Below, in pieces: positions 2,191 through 25,701 of a DNA stretch of 64,000 bases. The notes under the pieces are model-generated. The model was not told the origin of the DNA. It did no database searches and saw only the letters and a list, made by a program, of their open reading frames with translations. The DNA comes from a virus. Lineage: Duplodnaviria > Caudoviricetes. The first letter of the stretch is position 1. Every line of letters starts with the position of its first letter. The stretch is from IMG/VR virus record IMGVR_UViG_3300033075_001021; one strand, 5' to 3'. The translations under genes were made by a program, and so were the position numbers.

Positions 2191-2830
2191 ACAATTAGAA
2201 ATATCACAAGCTGAATTTTTACACATTATTGCCAATTTTTTTCCAGATAATGAAATTAAAAATATAATGGAAATCGGGTCATTAAACGGCAATGATTCAC
2301 GTCTGTATAAATCCAGATATCCGAATGCGAATGTATATTGTATCGAAGGCTTAAAAGAAAATTTTGACCTATACATCAAGGATTCTACTGAGCTGATTCC
2401 AATCAATGTTATTGTTACAGATTTTGATGGTACGATTTCATTCCATAAAAAAAATGTTAACGGTATTCATAGCATATATAATCGTGGAAACGCATACGGT
2501 ACGGAAGTACTATCAAATCAAACATGTAAAACATTTAATACTATTTGCAACGAATACAACATACCAAATATTGATGTTATTAAAATAGATGTTGAAGGCG
2601 CAACATTTGAAGTTCTATCTGGTATGAAAGAAAAAATTAAAGACATAAAAATAATGCATATTGAAACCGAGTCAATACCATTTTTTGAAGGGCAAAAGTT
2701 ACACGATGAAGTTGTTAATTATTTAACTGCAAATGGTTTTGAATTAGTTAAAATGACAAGCGTAAACATAAGCGGTGGGTTTCAACATGACTCTATTTGG
2801 ATTAATAAAAATGCACATGGAAAAAATTAA
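2183..2830 (+). CDS. FkbM-family SAM methyltransferase
   Basis: MEIGSLNG motif; IDVIKIDVEGA.FEVL. Confidence 0.88.
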   Translation: MSEQLEISQAEFLHIIANFFPDNEIKNIMEIGSLNGNDSRLYKSRYPNANVYCIEGLKENFDLYIKDSTELIPINVIVTDFDGTISFHKKNVNGIHSIYNRGNAYGTEVLSNQTCKTFNTICNEYNIPNIDVIKIDVEGATFEVLSGMKEKIKDIKIMHIETESIPFFEGQKLHDEVVNYLTANGFELVKMTSVNISGGFQHDSIWINKNAHGKN

Positions 2831-3740
2831 AAGGGGATGGTTAGTAAACGATACTTTAACCTGTATACCTGGCACAAAAACTTTTTGGCACGACTTATTA
2901 GACTGGATACCAAATCTAGAAGACAAATGCAATGGTCACACATCATTCCCAATTTTAGCATCTAAAATTGAGAGTGAAGGCCAAATCACACCACCAGACT
3001 ATATCATTAGGAATGCGACATACTTTAGAAGAATTAATCTTCCAGTAAAAACAATCAGTTTATTACAAGATTTATCCCCAGATAATCCAATGCAAATTGA
3101 TGTATGCAATAATTCAGACATTGTTGTTTATAACTCACCATATACTAAAGCACATTACGAAGGAAAAATCACATCAAAATCTGTCATGATTCCACTTGGC
3201 GTCGATTTTAATAAATTTACACCACATAATAAAAGCTATGCCGAAGAGCTTGGGGTGTTACCAAATTCAATTCTATTCATCGGCGCCGCAAATAATCACC
3301 CCAAAGGGTTTGATATTATGTTAGATATCATCAACAATACCGACTATAATTTCTGTTTAGTGATGAAGGATGGGTATCAAATAAACAATCCTAGGGTAAA
3401 GGTTTTTAATAGGATTGACCATGATTTATTGGTTAAGGTAATAAACTCATGCGAACAACTTGTTTGTACGTCTAGAGTTGAAACACTTCACCTAGCTGGT
3501 GTGGAAGCAGCTGCTTGTAATTTACCGTTGGTCACCTCCAACGTTGGAATTTATTATAATTCAGAAAATGGAATTTGGGGTCGAAACGTAAAAACGTTTA
3601 ATCCTCAGGATTTTATACAAGAAATCAAATTCGTTAAAGAAAATCTTCACACATTCTCACCAAGACAACACTTCTTAAATCTTGGGTTAGATATTGATAG
3701 CTGCAAAAAAAATTGGTTGAATCTTATTGACAATTTGTAG
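2817..3740 (+). CDS. GT4-like glycosyltransferase
   Basis: IPLGVDF, KGFD, ETLHLAGVEAAACNLPLV; ATG at 2817 preferred to the non-ATG start in the ORF track. Confidence 0.8.
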   Translation: MEKIKRGWLVNDTLTCIPGTKTFWHDLLDWIPNLEDKCNGHTSFPILASKIESEGQITPPDYIIRNATYFRRINLPVKTISLLQDLSPDNPMQIDVCNNSDIVVYNSPYTKAHYEGKITSKSVMIPLGVDFNKFTPHNKSYAEELGVLPNSILFIGAANNHPKGFDIMLDIINNTDYNFCLVMKDGYQINNPRVKVFNRIDHDLLVKVINSCEQLVCTSRVETLHLAGVEAAACNLPLVTSNVGIYYNSENGIWGRNVKTFNPQDFIQEIKFVKENLHTFSPRQHFLNLGLDIDSCKKNWLNLIDNL

Positions 3741-3760
3741 GAAATCAATATATTGGACTC

Positions 3761-4333
3761 ATGCAAATTAAAAGAGTCAATCTCCACAGTTGGATACAAC
3801 ACAACACCAATGGTTCAAATACTGTTGTTGAACTTGGTGCAATGTTTTTTGAAAAATTAAAACACGTACATCCAAGCGTTAAAACAAAAGTTGGTATAGA
3901 AATCTGGGAACCATATATTAAGTCTGAAGTAGACCACTTTGGTGTACCTGTAATTAAAGATTGTATTAAAATCCATGGAAGTGTTTTAGATTATAAAGAA
4001 CTTCTATCTGGATATGAACTTGATACAGCAATGATTATTGATGTTTTAGAACACTTTGATAAGGAAATAGCCTTTAAATGGATTGAAGACCTTAAAACAG
4101 ATTTCAATAAAATCATGCTAATGGTTCCAGCGGGTTATTTTCCACAAGAAGTTGACCATTCTGGCTTTAATGCTGATGAATATCAAAAACACAGAAGCTC
4201 ATGGTATCAAGAAGATATTGAAAAACTTGGATTTCAAGAAGTAGTTTTAGACCCAAATTTTCACTCTAATCCAGAACTGGTGGCTAATAAAATGGACACA
4301 GGATGTTGGTTTTGTGTCTGGACTAAAAACTAA
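3761..4333 (+). CDS. Class I SAM methyltransferase-like protein
   Basis: VVELGA motif; DVLEHF motif. Confidence 0.65.
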   Translation: MQIKRVNLHSWIQHNTNGSNTVVELGAMFFEKLKHVHPSVKTKVGIEIWEPYIKSEVDHFGVPVIKDCIKIHGSVLDYKELLSGYELDTAMIIDVLEHFDKEIAFKWIEDLKTDFNKIMLMVPAGYFPQEVDHSGFNADEYQKHRSSWYQEDIEKLGFQEVVLDPNFHSNPELVANKMDTGCWFCVWTKN

Positions 4334-10514: not shown

Positions 10515-10554
10515 ATGGGAGAAAAAAACAAATATATCGGTAATACTACCAGTT
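10515..10554 (+). pseudogene. Orphaned 5' end of the GT2 gene at 11289 (MGEK / TNISVILPV, one extra A)
   Basis: KTNISVILPV vs KTEISVILPV, 9/10 aa identical with 6 synonymous codon differences. Confidence 0.75.
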
Positions 10555-10593
10555 TTTTGTTAAAATGATATATTTATATATAAACAATCGATT

Positions 10594-11286
10594 ATGATTA
10601 TATATAAAACAACAAATCTTGTTAATGGTAAATTTTATATTGGTAAGGATGAAAAAAATAACCCGAATTATTTAGGTTCGGGTAAAATTTTAAAAATAGC
10701 GATTAAAAAGTATGGTACTGAAAATTTTAAGAAAGAAATTCTTGAAGAATGCAATAACAAAAAAGAACTAAATGAAAAAGAAAAATATTGGATAACCACT
10801 TTATCAGCAACAACTCTTGGATATAATATTGCAGAAGGTGGGACTGGTGGTAAAACAAAATTTAATACAACACATGTTTATCAATTTAATAAAAACGGTG
10901 ATTTTATAAAAGAATGGAATTCGGCAGCTGAGGTTGAAAGAACATTGGGTATTGACCAATCAGCGGTAATAAAAGCATGTAAAAGAAAATTGTTGAGTGT
11001 TAAGGGGTTTATGTGGTCATATGAAAATAATATAAAATCATTTTCTGATACAAGAAAAATTAAAATTTTACAATACGATAAAAATGGTTGTTTTATTAAA
11101 GAATGGGATTCAATTGTTGATGTTAAAAAAGCATATGTAATATGTGATAGACATATCCAATTAGTTCTTGATAAACCAAATAAAACAGCAAAAGGGTTTA
11201 TTTGGCTAAGAAAAAAAGAAAAGATAATAGATAAAATTGAGGTACCAAAATCTGGATATTTCAATAATAAAAATGCTAAAAAATAA
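10594..11286 (+). mobile_element. Free-standing GIY-YIG homing endonuclease with NUMOD1-like repeats
   Basis: IIYKTTNLVNGKFYIG, YLGSG, GYN; two VYQF.K.G.FIKEW.S repeats. Confidence 0.9.
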
Positions 11287-11288
11287 TT

Positions 11289-12098
11289 ATGGAAAAAGAA
11301 ATAAAAAAAACTGAAATTTCTGTGATACTACCCGTACACGACCTAAACGAAGAAACAAAACCAATGTTTCAAATTGCTGTAAAAAGCGTTGAACTACAAA
11401 AAGTTCAACCAGATGAATTGGTAATTGTTGTTCCGAAAGACAGCGAAGTTAGTAAATACGTGAAATCAATTGACTATGCTACCTTATCAGATAAAATAAC
11501 CATTGTTGAAAATGATGGTGCAACCGACTTCTGTTCACAAATGAATTTGGGTGTTAGTAAAGCTAAATCTGACTGGGTTTCATTATTGGAGTACGATGAC
11601 GAATATGCAAATATTTGGTTTAAGAATGTTGTCGAATATCGTGAAGCATACCCCAATTATGAAATTTTTATGCCAATCATTATTGACACTGATGCCGATG
11701 GTGGTTTTATTGGGCTTACCAATGAAGCAGTATGGGCACAGAGTTTTTCTGATGAGTTAGGTGTACTAGATTTAAATGCACTCCTTACATACCAAAACTT
11801 TAACATTGATGGTATGGTTATCAAAAAATCGTTATTCGAAGACTTTGGTGGATTTAAATCAAACATTAAATTAACATTCATTTATGAGTTTTTGTTAAGA
11901 ATGGCATTTAAGGATGTTAAGATTACAACAATCCCAAGATTTGGATATAAGCACGTTAACCAGAGGCCAAATTCATTATTTTCAAATTACAGAAATGAAA
12001 TGGACGCTGTCGAAGCAAAGTGGTGGCTAGCACAAGCTAAGAAAGAATACTATTTTGATAAAGATAGAAAAATAACATACATGAAACCAACGGTATAA
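11289..12098 (+). CDS. Family 2 glycosyltransferase
   Basis: ISVILPV N-terminus; LLEYDD. Confidence 0.82.
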   Translation: MEKEIKKTEISVILPVHDLNEETKPMFQIAVKSVELQKVQPDELVIVVPKDSEVSKYVKSIDYATLSDKITIVENDGATDFCSQMNLGVSKAKSDWVSLLEYDDEYANIWFKNVVEYREAYPNYEIFMPIIIDTDADGGFIGLTNEAVWAQSFSDELGVLDLNALLTYQNFNIDGMVIKKSLFEDFGGFKSNIKLTFIYEFLLRMAFKDVKITTIPRFGYKHVNQRPNSLFSNYRNEMDAVEAKWWLAQAKKEYYFDKDRKITYMKPTV

Positions 12099-18488: not shown

Positions 18489-18517
18489 TTGACAAATTAA
18501 AAATGTTTTAGTATAAT
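18489..18517 (+). promoter_or_regulatory. Consensus sigma70-type promoter
   Basis: TTGACA-N17-TATAAT. Confidence 0.8.
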
Positions 18518-18519
18518 TA

Positions 18520-18533
18520 TATTACGTTAACTC
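18520..18533. repeat. Left arm of 14-bp long-range inverted repeat
   Basis: TATTACGTTAACTC is the exact reverse complement of 20477..20490. Confidence 0.85.
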
Positions 18534-18622: not shown

Positions 18623-19510
18623 ATGAGACAAACAATCACTGGGCCAAGTGCGCCCATGGCTGCGATTTGTATTAACAAATCCAGACTAAAAACTTATCAC
18701 AAAGACAAAACCCCTACTTTCTACTTAGAGAAGGGTCAAGAATTTCAGATTGAATTATTCAATCCTACTTCAGACACAATTCTTGCTAAAATCCAATTAA
18801 ACGGTAATCAAATTTCACAAGGCGGTCTTGTACTTAGACCAGGTGAACGTGTATTCCTTGAACGTTATCTTGACGTGGCCAAAAAATTCAAATTCGACAC
18901 CTACGAAGTAGCTAACACAGCTGAAGTAAGGGAAGCGATTGAAGATAATGGTGACTTTAAGGTAGAATTTTACAGAGAATCAAGACCAGTATATTCATAT
19001 GGTTCTACAATTACTTTAAAAAACGATGTGCCATTTACCTACACTGACAACAATTCTACAGGATATAGAGGAATTAATCACACGTCACTTGGTACAACTG
19101 GAGGAAATCCACTTAATTTAACTGGGCTAAATGCGTCATTAAACGCAACACCAATTAGTTCATACTACAACACTGGTGGCGCAACATGCTATTCTTCAGA
19201 TGTTACGATGGATAGCTTTAATAGCGCATCACTAAGCGAACAAGCCGCACCAACCAAATCTTTAAGGTCTAGAAGTAAAACCATTGAAACTGGACGTGTA
19301 GAAGCTGGTAGCGGTTCAAATCAAAAATTGGAATATGTAAGCAAATCATTTGAATACTGGCCATTCCATACAGTTGAATATAAACTTTTACCTATTTCAC
19401 AAAAGGTAAATACTGTTGCTGACATCAACGTTAAAAGATACTGCACAAATTGTGGTAAAAAATCCGACAAAACAGATAAATTTTGTTCACAGTGTGGTAA
19501 TAAATTATAA
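18623..19510 (+). CDS. Hypothetical protein with C-terminal zinc ribbon
   Basis: CTNCG..FCSQCG. Confidence 0.8.
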   Translation: MRQTITGPSAPMAAICINKSRLKTYHKDKTPTFYLEKGQEFQIELFNPTSDTILAKIQLNGNQISQGGLVLRPGERVFLERYLDVAKKFKFDTYEVANTAEVREAIEDNGDFKVEFYRESRPVYSYGSTITLKNDVPFTYTDNNSTGYRGINHTSLGTTGGNPLNLTGLNASLNATPISSYYNTGGATCYSSDVTMDSFNSASLSEQAAPTKSLRSRSKTIETGRVEAGSGSNQKLEYVSKSFEYWPFHTVEYKLLPISQKVNTVADINVKRYCTNCGKKSDKTDKFCSQCGNKL

Positions 19511-20365
19511 AGATAAAAAATCTTTCCAACCTAACCAAACCCCTCTTCTTCTAAAATATGTTGAGGGGTTTTTTGGTATTCCAGTTGGTTTATTAAGTTT
19601 AATGTATTCTTTAAATGTTGTTGAATTTAAATTATACTTTGATAATATTTTTTTACATTCGTCATATGAGTAAAATATTTCGTTTTTAACCCTAGTATAT
19701 GTGTTACCTAAAAAATTATCCCATGAAACCCATCCATTATTTTTATATGTTAGTTGAGGATTAACGGGTAGATTATTAACCCTAGCATAAACGTACCAAT
19801 CTCTAATATTGTTAAATTTGTTTTTATGTGCTATCTTTTTTAAGACATTATATGAAATTGTATGTTTATTATTTTTAATGTTTTTTGTATTAAAAAAATC
19901 ACCCCATGAAACCCATCCATTATTTTTAAAAACACTGTCAGGTCTTTTTGGTATATTTAAATGACTATTTAATTTAAAATATTCCCGCCACTTTTTTTCA
20001 CTATCTATTTCTGGTATGTTATTCACTCTCCATTGTCTAACATCATCAAGTGTTAATTTGTACCTTTTACCAGAATGCCCATCCCCACCTTCAGATATAT
20101 TTGTCAGGTTATCAAATTGCCTAATCCAATATTTTTCTCTTTCGGCCCAACTATTTTCATCTGATTCTTCTAAAATTTGTATATTAATGGTACCACCACT
20201 ATTTAAAACTTTTCGAATCCAATTATTTTTATGTGTTATCACACCACGTTTAGCTGCTGATAAATGGTCATTTTTTCTAATTTTTGGTCTATAAGATTTT
20301 CCAACATATCTTATAACACCATCTTCTGCACATAACCCATAAATAAATATTTTATTTGTTTTCAT
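19505..20365 (-). mobile_element. Free-standing GIY-YIG homing endonuclease with GWVSWxxFL repeats
   Basis: FIYGL..IRYVGKS..R..H; REKYWI; three GW.SW..F repeats; own TATTTAT upstream. Confidence 0.85.
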
Positions 20366-20402
20366 AAAATTCTTTATAATAAATATGTGGTAATTAACAA
20401 AA

Positions 20403-20465
20403 AACTGTGGTGCCAAGCAAAAGCCAGAATTTAAATTCTGTCCTAGTTGCGGCGCTAAAGCATAA
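20403..20465 (+). pseudogene. Orphaned 3' end (zinc ribbon) of gene 18623
   Basis: NCGAKQKPEFKFCPSCGAKA* vs NCGKKSDKTDKFCSQCGNKL*, same length, 10/20 identical. Confidence 0.85.
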
Positions 20466-20476
20466 ATAATAAACTA

Positions 20477-20490
20477 GAGTTAACGTAATA
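20477..20490. repeat. Right arm of 14-bp long-range inverted repeat
   Basis: GAGTTAACGTAATA. Confidence 0.85.
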
Positions 20491-20518
20491 AAAAAAGGTG
20501 GAATCTTCCACCTTTTTT
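20491..20518. terminator. Bidirectional intrinsic terminator
   Basis: AAAAAAGGTGGAA-TC-TTCCACCTTTTTT between convergent units. Confidence 0.85.
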
Positions 20519-21443: not shown

Positions 21444-21629
21444 ATGAACAAAATCATTAAAGAAAATGATGAAAAATATTTCATCACTTGTGGTGACTGT
21501 AACACTCATTTTGAATATACTATAACAGATGTTAAACCATTTACTGGATGGGTATTAGGTAAAATATCTGATTATGTTATATGTCCAAAGTGCAATAAAC
21601 AAGTAGACCACATTAAGGGCAAAATTTAG
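21444..21629 (+). CDS. Small zinc-binding protein
   Basis: CGDC...CPKC. Confidence 0.6.
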   Translation: MNKIIKENDEKYFITCGDCNTHFEYTITDVKPFTGWVLGKISDYVICPKCNKQVDHIKGKI

Positions 21630-22299
21630 ACCCTTTAGAAAGATTATCTGGCCACCATAGTGGTTGCAGATTATTCAACGCCCAACAAGCTTTAAACTCT
21701 GGGTCATCAGGACTTTCGAATTTAAAGCTTGACATTGGGCGAATATGGTCTACATGCCATTGACCATAATTATCCCATGTCATCCCATCAACAAATTGTT
21801 TTTCCAAGTGCTGCATTAATTCCTCTATTGTATAACCAAGTAATTCAAATGTAGAACGATATTTAGCAACATTAGCTTCTTTAAGACATGTATAAACGGC
21901 TGTTCTTGTTCTAGCTGCTAATCTATATTTTGGGTCCTCAGCACGACGCTTACGTTCGTATTCACGTTTGTATATATTTACATGTTCTTTATTCTTTTTA
22001 CGCCATTCAGTATGTTTTTCACGTAAATACCCCCTATTTTCATTAGCCCATTCTTTATATGATTTACTAATTTCTTTTTTATTTTTACTATAATAACGTT
22101 TATTGGCCTCACTTTTACCACCAATATTACGTCTTCCTGATGTATTAAATATAACGCCATTTTCTCTAAGTGTTCTAATTATAATAGTTTTATGAATACC
22201 CATATGTTTACTTATTGTTGTACAACCCAATAAGTTTTCATTATACATTCTTAAGCATTCATCTATTTGTTCTTTTGTTAATTCGATTTTCTTACTCAT
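21613..22299 (-). mobile_element. HNH-type free-standing endonuclease
   Basis: GMTWDNYGQWHVDHIRP..NLQPLW..DNLSKG; N-terminal HTH and charged helix. Confidence 0.8.
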
Positions 22300-22394: not shown

Positions 22395-24287
22395 TTATCT
22401 AAGTTCAGCAACATTGAATGTTGGAACACCATCGACACGTACATGGCCGTAAAAGCGGTTATTCACAACTTTTTTAGCGTAACGAGTCATGATACCTTTA
22501 ACTGGAGCAAAGTTGAAAGGATTGTACATAGTTGGGGTCAACTGAAGAGGTACATACGGAGCGTAAATGTAACCAGTGTCCAACAATGACTTACCTTTGT
22601 GACCAACAATTACTGAGTAAGCTGGTGCATATGGGTCACGATATACTTGATATCTACCGCTTAATGTACCGATTCTTTCAATACCCATGTTGTATTGGTC
22701 TTGCTCTGGGTTAGCATCACTTACGTGGAAATACTCAAGGTCATCGAATACAGCTGAAATTTCAGAAGATACAACGATGAAGTTTGCACCACCACGAAGA
22801 GTTGATTTGTGGATTTGAGCTGAAAGTTGGTTAACTCTAGTAATAAGAGTTTGGTTCCAGTCTTTCTGAGTGTATGGGCTAGCAGCAGAAGAAGCTTTTC
22901 TCCAACCGTTGTAGTCCCAACGTAATTGCCATGCAGCAGCTTTACGTAAGTCTCTCAAGATTTCTCTATCGATTTCAGCAGCAACCTGCTCAGACAACAT
23001 AGCTGTTAATTCAGCTTCTGCGTCGATATTGTGGAATGCGCTTACGTCTTGAGCCAATTCAGGAGACCAAGTAGCTCTTAATTTTCTTTCTTCAACAGCT
23101 ACAACAACTTCATCAAGTTTGAATGAAACTTCACCAAGTTCAGTTTCAAGTTCCAATGAAGCGTATTCAGCCCATGCGAATACATATGCTGGGTTAGTTG
23201 TTAAACCAGATACAGTACCTAAGATACCACCAGTTGTACCAGTAGCACCAACGTAACCGTCATAAGTAGCTGTACCAGCAGCAGCTGTACCAGAAGCAGT
23301 AGTACCTACTGGGTGACGAAGGTCAAGCTCAATGTACATAAGACCATTAGGGGTAGTTAAAGTACCACCTGGGCCGTTTTGTACGATACCTTTACCGTAT
23401 TGTTGAGTAACGATACGAAGAGGAACCTCGCCACCAGCAGCGATGATTACGTTACCATCTGGGTCTTTAATTGCGTTTGTAGTAGTACAAATCAATGAAG
23501 CCAAGAATGATTCAGTATCCATGTTGTTACCATCAGGACCAGTCAATACTTCACGGCCATTTGCTGAACCAGCACCGCCAGTGAAACCTGAAAGACCGAT
23601 GATTACGCTTCTTACAGTACCATCAGTAGCCAAAGGCAATACTGAGCTAGCAGAAGCAACAGACAATGAACCGTCATTACCGAATGTATAAGCATTCAAA
23701 GAAGACATGTTTATTGTCTTGATAGTAAGAGTACCTTTTGAGTTATCGAACATACCGTCATTGTAGAAAATGTCGTATAAGTTCTTAGCCATCCACTGAG
23801 TCAATGGAGTAGATGCTTTTGTTACAGCAACTGGCAAAGCAGCAGCAGTAGCAACACCATCGTGTTCACCGTTAAGACCAGTGTGAGCAGAGAAAGTTGT
23901 ACCATATGGAGTGGTAGCGTAGTCGTTACCAGCAACACCAGCAGAGTTAACACGGCTAGAAGTTTGAGGTACGAAATAGAACAATTTACCGATTGGCATG
24001 TTCATAGCTTGAACAGACACGATGTCGTTAGCAAGCAATTTAGAGAATACACGTCTTACGATTGGGAACACTACAGTTTCGAAAGAACCTGAAGAGTTAG
24101 CAGTAGTAGACTCATTCAAAAGTTGAGAAGCTTGGTTCTCATACAATTGAGCAATGTTCTCTTTTACGTGGCCTTTAAGACCATCAAGGAAACCAAGGCT
24201 ATCCCATTTTGCTTGGGTCTCTTTACGGATTGCCTTCATGTGGTTCAATCCAATGTTTCCAACTTGTCCAGAAGTTAATAAATTCAT
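22395..24287 (-). CDS. gp23: Major capsid protein, T4 gp23-like
   Basis: FPIVRRVF, VQAMNMPIG, RKLRATWSPELAQD, EIDREI, GYIYAPYVPL, GIMTRYA; start at MNLLTSG. Confidence 0.96.
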   Translation of the reverse strand: MNLLTSGQVGNIGLNHMKAIRKETQAKWDSLGFLDGLKGHVKENIAQLYENQASQLLNESTTANSSGSFETVVFPIVRRVFSKLLANDIVSVQAMNMPIGKLFYFVPQTSSRVNSAGVAGNDYATTPYGTTFSAHTGLNGEHDGVATAAALPVAVTKASTPLTQWMAKNLYDIFYNDGMFDNSKGTLTIKTINMSSLNAYTFGNDGSLSVASASSVLPLATDGTVRSVIIGLSGFTGGAGSANGREVLTGPDGNNMDTESFLASLICTTTNAIKDPDGNVIIAAGGEVPLRIVTQQYGKGIVQNGPGGTLTTPNGLMYIELDLRHPVGTTASGTAAAGTATYDGYVGATGTTGGILGTVSGLTTNPAYVFAWAEYASLELETELGEVSFKLDEVVVAVEERKLRATWSPELAQDVSAFHNIDAEAELTAMLSEQVAAEIDREILRDLRKAAAWQLRWDYNGWRKASSAASPYTQKDWNQTLITRVNQLSAQIHKSTLRGGANFIVVSSEISAVFDDLEYFHVSDANPEQDQYNMGIERIGTLSGRYQVYRDPYAPAYSVIVGHKGKSLLDTGYIYAPYVPLQLTPTMYNPFNFAPVKGIMTRYAKKVVNNRFYGHVRVDGVPTFNVAELR

Positions 24288-24312
24288 GGTTAGATTATTT
24301 TTTTGTTTTTTG

Positions 24313-25701
24313 TTATCTGTTTTCAACTCGCTTAATCAAATCTTTGATTCTTTGAGTAGAAGGGTCAACATACGCAGTAGCTTCATTAAGTTGTTTTGAG
24401 CTACTTGTAGTTACCTCTTTAATTATTTTGTTTTCTACCGATTCATTAATTGGCTTTCTAGTTGCCAATTCATTAGCGATAGTTTTGTATAACCTTTTTG
24501 ATTCTTTAAGGTTTGTAACCTCATCGTCGAATCTTTTGATGATTTCTTTTTTCTCATCTTTGGTAGTTGAGTGTTCCATAAACAACTTAGTTACATAACT
24601 AAGATTTGAATTGAATACAACTGTTTCCACCAACATATTTCTGAACTTCTTAAGCGCTTTTCTGAATTCTTCATTTTCAGCCTTAAGTTGTGCAGCTTCA
24701 GTTAATAACGTTTTGTACTTAGCTTCCGCTTCAGAAATGACCTTTTTAGATGATACAGATTCTTTTACAGATTTTGGATTTTCAGCTGCGCCGATTGAAC
24801 CGCCAGTTGTTTTGTTACGGTGGTTACCCACGCTCATACCAACACCAACAGCAATTTTTTCTTCAACAACATCTTCATCTTCTTCTTCGTCTTCCTCTTT
24901 TACCATCTCTTCGTCTTCTTCAGACTCTTCTTTAACCATTTCTTCGTCTTCTTCGGATTCTTCGTTAACAACTTCTTCGTCGTCCATAGCGATTTCATAC
25001 ATCATTTCGTCTTCGAATTCTTCAGAACCGTCATTGCTAATAGCAACTTCGTCTTCAAAGCCTTCTGAACCTTCTGAACCTTCTTCACCACCAATAGCAA
25101 CTTCGTCGCCACCAGCCATGTCATCAAGTCCTTCAAGTCCTTCTTCAGATTCATCCCCGATGCCTAAATCATTCTTTTTAATGATATATTCACCTGGTTC
25201 TGAAATGTTTACATGTACTTCGTCACCTACAACTTCGATTTCGTCTTCACCGCTAAGCTTTTTGTAGATTGCGATAACATCATCATCTGATGCACTTGTC
25301 ATATCTATTTCGTCTCCACCAAACGCATCATCTGCGTCCATTCCCATTTCTTGGTCATCTTCTGGACCAACTTCAGGAGCGTCAATAGCGTCATCAGAAT
25401 CATCAGAATCGGTTTCTGGTTCGGTTTCTTCTCCACCTTCTTCATCCCCTTCTGGTTCAGCGTCTGATTCGTCATCAGAACTAGCCTCATCTTCTTGGTC
25501 GTCAGATTCAGGAGCAGATTCGTCATCCTTTACCTCTTCTTCTTCGTATAACCCCTCTTCTTCGAGTGACTCTTTCACCATACCATCAATTTCTTCTCTC
25601 GCAACGGAGCGAAGTATTTCTTTGGTGTTGGCATTTAAAGCTTCTTGGATTTTTTGAACGTCCAACAAAGCTTCTTCATAGATAGATTTTTTGTCTGCCA
25701 T
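24313..25701 (-). CDS. Prohead core scaffold protein
   Basis: Very acidic with a coiled-coil C-terminus; lies between protease and capsid genes; tandem EESEEDEEMVK repeats. Confidence 0.75.
   Translation of the reverse strand: MADKKSIYEEALLDVQKIQEALNANTKEILRSVAREEIDGMVKESLEEEGLYEEEEVKDDESAPESDDQEDEASSDDESDAEPEGDEEGGEETEPETDSDDSDDAIDAPEVGPEDDQEMGMDADDAFGGDEIDMTSASDDDVIAIYKKLSGEDEIEVVGDEVHVNISEPGEYIIKKNDLGIGDESEEGLEGLDDMAGGDEVAIGGEEGSEGSEGFEDEVAISNDGSEEFEDEMMYEIAMDDEEVVNEESEEDEEMVKEESEEDEEMVKEEDEEEDEDVVEEKIAVGVGMSVGNHRNKTTGGSIGAAENPKSVKESVSSKKVISEAEAKYKTLLTEAAQLKAENEEFRKALKKFRNMLVETVVFNSNLSYVTKLFMEHSTTKDEKKEIIKRFDDEVTNLKESKRLYKTIANELATRKPINESVENKIIKEVTTSSSKQLNEATAYVDPSTQRIKDLIKRVENR

Follow-up and report, generated by a model that had tools for sequence, protein, structure and literature searches.

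A GIY-YIG nuclease cassette that probably carries a replacement zinc-ribbon end for the phage gene it occupies

To our knowledge, free-standing homing endonucleases are thought to be limited to intergenic spots, with entry into coding sequence requiring an intron or an intein. A locus in an uncultured, T4-like phage raises the question of how such a nuclease gene might come to lie within the 3' end of a coding sequence and still leave the interrupted gene with a complete product. The stretch analysed here (the window) comprises 64,000 nucleotides of the IMG/VR virus record IMGVR_UViG_3300033075_001021 and includes a Gp23-type major capsid gene at 22395..24326. At 18623..19510 on the plus strand it carries an open reading frame of 295 aa, referred to below as the host gene, whose last codons are overlapped by a gene for a GIY-YIG homing endonuclease of 286 aa on the opposite strand (19505..20365, with its ATG at 20365). 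The initial annotation proposed that an antisense GIY-YIG cassette had swapped the zinc-ribbon C-terminus of the host protein, and comparison of cassette and stub sequences across relatives supports this proposal.

The host gene does end in NCGKKSDKTDKFCSQCGNKL and a stop, as annotated. Its last 20 codons, CGKKSDKTDKFCSQCGNKL followed by the stop (19451..19510), are in frame with the host body and form the putative surrogate zinc-ribbon tail (tail A). Past the nuclease gene, a plus-strand frame of 24 open codons (20394..20465) reads LTKN CGAKQKPEFKFCPSCGAKA up to a stop; this stub corresponds to the displaced native tail (tail B), and its homologous part begins at the Asn/Cys-Gly codons (20403/20406). 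The stub is not a separate reading frame with its own start, given that an in-frame TAA (20391-20393) precedes it and that 0 of its 24 codons are ATG, GTG or TTG. The native C-terminus thus appears to be kept downstream of the nuclease in a form that could not be translated from a start of its own. Three Cys residues align between the two tails (in the first knuckle the second Cys, in the second knuckle both), and the tails are alike at 10 of 20 positions (stop included) and at 33 of 60 nt. The host frame, which ends at 19510, and the minus-strand nuclease frame, which ends at 19505, both place their stops on the palindromic TTATAA at 19505-19510, which reads Leu-stop on either strand.

The C-terminus at stake is a four-Cys zinc ribbon (Pfam Zn_Ribbon_1, 26.1 bits against a cut-off of 25), and its four Cys residues are invariant in all 60 homologues examined, out of at least 2411 host-gene homologues found at E<=0.001. 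The protein consists of a conserved body, a variable and disordered linker, and the C-terminal ribbon. In the structural model, the N-terminal 120 residues and strands from residues 220-257 build a beta-sandwich, and residues 135-216 are disordered. Pfam recognized the zinc ribbon alone and no other family in the host protein, a PDB search with the model returned no match at E<=0.001, and no PHROG was recovered for the host gene, for the nuclease or for the neighbouring genes upstream. A contig of 304 kb carries the recorded host protein. As a separate observation, the BFVD search placed the fold closest to a marine phage protein (E 4e-22) and also found it to resemble uncharacterised proteins of giant viruses, nudiviruses, iridoviruses and white spot syndrome virus (E down to 1e-10).

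The origin of the stub is apparent from relatives that lack the cassette. In L032 (protein P0003) and L033/L034 (P0009), tail B occupies the same place in the host gene, and the 3' UTR, terminator and convergent GNAT-type gene that come immediately after it are the same as in the window. The stub matches the native tail of L033 at 55 of 60 nt, with all five differences synonymous, and the match runs on through the 3' UTR and terminator (57 of 65 nt), an agreement far beyond chance. With 55 of 60 nt shared with the L033 tail versus 33 of 60 with the resident tail, the native piece groups with close relatives and the inserted piece appears foreign. The intact state and synonymous divergence of the stub suggest that the insertion is recent and that the gene was under selection before it. 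The stretch following the stub (20466..20518), which includes a terminator-like hairpin at 20491-20518, is collinear with the 3' UTR of L032 and L033 and represents the native 3' UTR and bidirectional terminator. In addition, a sigma-70-type promoter-like site, a consensus match only (12 of 12, TTGACA-17-TATAAT), is located 5' of the host gene at 18489..18517 on the plus strand. With this match on one side and the terminator past the stub on the other, the original transcription unit appears to have spanned both.

Comparison of the window with other occupied loci delimits the inserted unit. Two further contigs, L001 from IMG/VR (host protein P0023, 67% identical) and L031 from Logan (87%), share the layout of the window, with tail A, an antisense nuclease gene, a 6-bp stop overlap and a stub. 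Over 19448-20402 they are 98.7% (L001) and 99.7% (L031) identical to the window, versus 71-83% for the flanks overall; outside this block, identity is 74% in the upstream genes, 71-83% in the 5' part of the host body, 82.5-93.7% in the stub and 73-84% in the 3' UTR. At the right edge, mismatches return within 10-12 nt after 20402 (20412/20414). In a fourth background, L059 (P0004, 70% identical), differences from the window extend to about 19432-19441, after which the two sequences agree completely until the contig ends 62 nt into the nuclease gene; L059 thus shares the same left end of the cassette from about 19437 onward. Taken together, the drop in identity in L001 and L031 and the left edge in L059 define a mobile cassette of about 966 bp (19437..20402), with edges known to about 10 nt and the uncertainty lying on the left. 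It comprises tail A, which is the same or differs by one residue in P0002, P0004 and P0023, the antisense nuclease gene with its overlapping stop, and a 37-nt right end 5' of the nuclease start (20366..20402), the same in the window and L031 and with one change in L001. This right end contains an AT-rich box that has related counterparts in L053, L056, L057 and L010, and the box is conserved 8-14 nt before the nuclease start codon among divergent cassettes. The cassette is therefore present at a fixed site in some genomes and absent in others, and is far more alike than its flanks; among 30 host-gene loci sampled from IMG/VR, two were occupied.

The stubs show the opposite pattern to the resident tails. 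Those of the window, L001 and L031 are mutually different, and each tracks its host-gene lineage. The stub of L001 equals the tail of P0021, which is sister to the L001 protein P0023 in the body tree with 100% support, and the two appear to form a natural before/after pair. The survey of homologues recommended in the initial annotation, asking which tail occurs with and without the nuclease, was thus answered as expected in two respects: resident tail and nuclease form a single, near-identical block that moves as a unit through four host-gene backgrounds, and the stub tracks the host lineage, being equal to the tail that cassette-free relatives carry. In a third respect it was not, since tail A is not exclusive to the cassette, and tail-A-like ends without a GIY-YIG gene occur in at least three contigs (L050, L051 and L052). 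By such comparison, the anatomy of the locus, the horizontal spread of the cassette, the lineage-specific stubs and the empty alleles can be regarded as established.

These patterns also bear on two accounts in which the resident tail was not brought in from outside. The first assumes a local origin, with a tandem duplication of the gene's 3' end, divergence of the two copies and a nuclease landing between them. It would accommodate two similar tails in direct orientation about 950 bp apart, but it leaves unexplained why the resident tail is near-identical across genomes whose host bodies are only 67-87% identical, and why the stubs differ and match the cassette-free relatives of each lineage; moreover, the exclusively synonymous differences between the stub and the L033 tail argue against long neutral drift after a duplication. 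We consider this account very improbable. The second reverses the polarity, taking tail A as native and the stub as flanking DNA imported with an intergenic nuclease gene. Although tail-A-like ends are native in some lineages (L050 and L051), the high-identity block contains tail A and leaves out the stub, and both the stub and the 3' UTR that follows are collinear with, and closest to, those of cassette-free relatives of the same clade, which makes this polarity equally hard to credit.

If the cassette is a homing element, its nuclease should look the part. Pfam GIY-YIG (PF01541) matches residues 6-85 with 27.1 bits against a cut-off of 22.6, and residues Y9, Y20, G22, R30, E77 and N89 are invariant in 36 nuclease relatives, with H34 nearly so (at least 90%). 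I-TevI is the intron-encoded GIY-YIG endonuclease of T4 td, and the Tyr/Tyr/Arg/His/Glu/Asn set of the window nuclease, which we take to be equivalent to the I-TevI residues, is conserved in the same way. The nuclease model has a pLDDT of 86.7, and Foldseek aligned its N-terminal domain with the catalytic domain of I-TevI (1ln0_B; TM 0.77, rmsd 2.2 A), as well as with T4 EndoII and the UvrC N-domain, at probabilities of 0.9-1.0 and weak whole-query E-values. Like I-TevI, the protein appears to be modular, with a separate C-terminal part that may bind DNA; unlike I-TevI, in which this part consists of a zinc finger and a helix-turn-helix, the C-terminal 190 residues here form three to four helical repeats of the type Pro...Tyr-Lys-Asn-x-Gly-Trp-x-Ser-Trp-x-x-Phe, with a conserved Gly-Trp-x-Ser-Trp motif. 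The name INT_rpt (PF14882) is on record for some relatives and matches the L010 copy weakly (16.5 bits); it was not adopted for the repeats of the window nuclease, in which it found no significant match. A sequence search of PDB chains with the nuclease returned chance rows only.

Selection on the nuclease was assessed between lineages, where dN/dS ranges from 0.23 to 0.41. The gene is apparently intact and constrained, and judged from sequence and model it looks functional. Between L001 and the window, all nine changes are non-synonymous, which suggests relaxed selection on the L001 nuclease, and some copies may be decaying. With respect to expression, neither a promoter nor a ribosome-binding site for the nuclease was established in the right-end region in the window. 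A T4-type late promoter was rejected, as TATAAATA occurs 10 times in the window versus 10.6 expected, and so was a structured 5' leader, which shows no notable fold (z -0.27). A group I intron was likewise rejected: Rfam gave no family at E<=1 save chance-level sRNA rows, the host frame has its own stop, the nuclease is antisense, and just 37 nt separate the nuclease start from the stub.

Among 105 nuclease relatives found at E<=0.001, several occupy the same site. In L053-55 (70% identity) and L056 (66%), the relative is antisense to the 3' end of a host-family gene and shares the TTATAA overlap; the 6-bp stop overlap was seen in L001, L031, L053 and L056, and an overlap of 4 bp in L010. A 59% relative (L057) is also antisense and lies 29 nt from the host stop. 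In L053-55, L056 and L057, the resident tails end in Cys-Gly-Asn/Gln-Lys-Leu and belong to the tail-A type; the stubs belong to the tail-B type and start with the Cys-Gly codon. The L010 relative, a protein of 365 aa with 46% identity, shows the same architecture with both a different surrogate tail and a different stub, which likewise starts at the Cys-Gly codon. Down to 46% identity, each with its own tail and stub, this nuclease clade has long been associated with the host-gene site. Two other loci were noted separately. L058 (about 800-2000 in locus coordinates), whose nuclease gene encodes 357 aa (46% identity), has the same arrangement with a decayed candidate stub that contains an internal stop, lies about 1.2 kb from the nuclease start and is separated from it by three small ORFs; this looks like an old insertion. 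In L036, a 137-kb viral contig, a relative with 40% identity (2495-3388) is convergent to a ClpP-like protease gene and lies 5 nt from the end of that gene.

A quick tree was built from 120 host-protein bodies with the tails removed; on it, the 16 tail-A rows require 12 changes, versus a mean of 15.3 after shuffling, and at least eight changes are forced by well-supported branches. Tail type is therefore incongruent with the body phylogeny, indicating that tails have been exchanged horizontally. In L050 (P0029) and L051 (P0090), the tail-A-like ending is followed directly by a normal 3' UTR, and no nuclease gene was called downstream of P0019. Such ends without a GIY-YIG gene imply either that tail exchange is separable from the window nuclease or that the nuclease is often lost. 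The nuclease-free alleles of L050 and L051 may represent the source of the surrogate tail, with which their 3' UTR junctions fit, or they may be formerly occupied alleles that later lost the nuclease and stub, with which the junctions fit equally well. In L052 (P0051), the tail-A-like end is followed by a LAGLIDADG endonuclease gene (39.9 bits against a cut-off of 22.5), and the end of the host gene is thus a landing spot for more than one nuclease family. This LAGLIDADG gene (3350-4159, minus strand, PF14528) immediately follows the host gene on its 3' side, at the position taken by the GNAT-type gene in relatives. In IMG/VR, a degenerate DNA pattern representing the end of tail A matched the L001 contig alone; in the JGI metagenomes it matched two unrelated zinc-ribbon proteins (L048 and L049) and nothing else.

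The shuffling of tails across the family even where a GIY-YIG gene is absent lends some weight to the idea of a passive passenger, in which ordinary homologous recombination during co-infection moved the block, the nuclease is inactive or aimed elsewhere, and the tail swap is a mosaic by-product; the exclusively non-synonymous differences in the L001 nuclease fit this idea as well. Against it, the block edges coincide within about 10-15 nt in four backgrounds, the nuclease clade keeps site, orientation and stub down to 46% identity, and the nuclease is under purifying selection between lineages. Coinciding edges, a kept site and purifying selection are what would be expected of site-specific homing and not of random mosaicism, and we judge a passive passenger to be unlikely.

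The reading we prefer, and hold to be probable, is that of a free-standing GIY-YIG homing cassette inside the 3' end of a phage gene, bearing a replacement for the piece that it displaces. During mixed infection, a tail B allele without the cassette would be cut by the nuclease close to the first Cys-Gly codons. Repair would then draw on the cassette-bearing genome, with the gene body as the left homology arm and the stub plus 3' UTR as the right arm, and tail A would be copied together with the nuclease gene. The recipient would thereby gain both, and its own tail would remain behind as the stub. As the surrogate would supply a four-Cys ribbon, the host protein would stay whole; such a surrogate seems to be needed because the ribbon Cys residues are invariant and no splicing takes place. 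In the occupied allele the site would be divided, its upstream half adjoining tail A and its downstream half adjoining cassette DNA; this allele is probably immune because the insertion splits the target. Co-conversion appears to have been very short on either side (less than about 15 nt), which fits a break near the insertion point. Cleavage, the cut position, immunity and expression of the nuclease are what we infer here.

An extension of this homing model, which we regard as rather doubtful, treats the stub and the stop overlap as working parts instead of debris and the cassette as a long-lived, co-adapted gene-end parasite of a phage gene family. In the stub, the downstream half of the homing site would be retained immediately before the nuclease start; by binding there without cleavage, the nuclease could repress transcription of its own gene. 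I-TevI is known to bind its operator and repress its own transcription. The stub would also double as the right homology arm in each new invasion, and the shared TTATAA would weld the surrogate tail to the nuclease against separation by recombination. A hairpin within the nuclease gene would, in the same extension, restore termination of the host transcript. Independently of this extension, a hairpin with a U run after it lies at 19539..19580 on the plus strand, within the antisense coding sequence of the nuclease, and is a possible terminator for the host gene; RNA folding of 19500-19585 gave -19.7 kcal/mol (z -2.8), and a terminator scan, for which its loop is too long, did not call it. This hairpin could terminate the host transcript inside the cassette. 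As an independent observation, a 17-nt inverted repeat (94% complementary) links 18517-18533, at the host transcript start, with 20477-20493, in the native 3' UTR, and its 3' arm, which contains AGTTAACGTA, is conserved in the corresponding UTRs of relatives. This pairing would be lost if host transcripts now stop within the cassette.

Several known systems resemble the locus in part. T4-like phages harbour free-standing seg (GIY-YIG) and mob (HNH) homing endonucleases that spread by 'intronless homing' (PMC2988022; SegB, PMC2330249). Like these, the present nuclease is of the GIY-YIG type, lies outside any intron in a T4-like phage, is polymorphic in presence or absence between related phages, and would be expected to spread through double-strand-break repair with co-conversion of flanks; host-gene signals can also sit inside the nuclease coding region in both cases. 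In contrast, the T4 examples are either intergenic or divide a gene so that two polypeptides result (nrdA/mobE in Aeh1 and gene 60/mobA). A review of T4-type mobile elements covers intergenic seg and mob genes and split genes, and includes no surrogate end with a leftover stub (PMC2988022), nor are surrogate ends described in a study of nuclease genes at phage recombination boundaries (PMC10448857). A literature search for a phage case of a surrogate gene end found organellar cases only.

In its layout, the locus corresponds to gene hybrids created by mobile endonuclease ORFs (mORFs) in fungal mitochondria, reported for atp6 of Allomyces macrogynus and for atp6, atp9, cox2 and nad3 of Glomus sp. 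(PMC3630166), with C-terminal duplications in fungal mitochondria likewise described (PMC6279837). They share with the window an endonuclease ORF in the 3' part of a gene, a foreign C-terminal piece in frame with its own stop, and a native C-terminus displaced about 1 kb downstream; in both, the native piece is nearest to that of relatives, with synonymous differences only, and the inserted piece is divergent (PMC3630166). The window case differs in residing in a phage genome instead of an organelle, in having the nuclease on the opposite strand with overlapping stops (the mORF is in phase and co-oriented), in a displaced piece of just 20 codons, and in a nuclease clade that has kept its site and a co-diverging surrogate tail. 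New features are the phage setting, the antisense orientation of a nuclease gene whose stop overlaps that of the host gene, and the co-divergence of surrogate tail and nuclease across a wide identity range. The finding is real and well supported by comparison, and is mechanistically ordinary for a homing element; for a phage, the locus is an unusually clear and well-sampled case of gene-end replacement.

Such an element would represent a third route into phage coding sequence, in which the invader brings a spare gene end. With natural before/after pairs, four apparently recent insertions of a single cassette and older relatives occupying that site, the target site, the immunity of the occupied allele and the role of the stub can be tested directly. 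For annotation, stubs of this kind can pass for short ORFs or for duplications, and protein phylogenies are blurred by the exchange of tails.

Two other nuclease-like loci in the window deserve mention. A second GIY-YIG gene (10594..11286, plus strand, 230 aa) is situated just before a GT2-type gene (11289..12098), which starts MEKEIKKTEISVILPV. Upstream of this nuclease gene (window 10515-11286), the frame 10528-10554 encodes TNISVILPV, which looks like a displaced 5' stub, a possible mirror image of the 19437..20402 cassette. Between the GNAT cluster and the capsid gene, a minus-strand ORF of 228 aa (21613-22299) has a weak ANT match only in Pfam; an HNH-like motif (His-Val-Asp-His ... Asn-Asn-Leu) lies near its C-terminus, and it is possibly another homing endonuclease.
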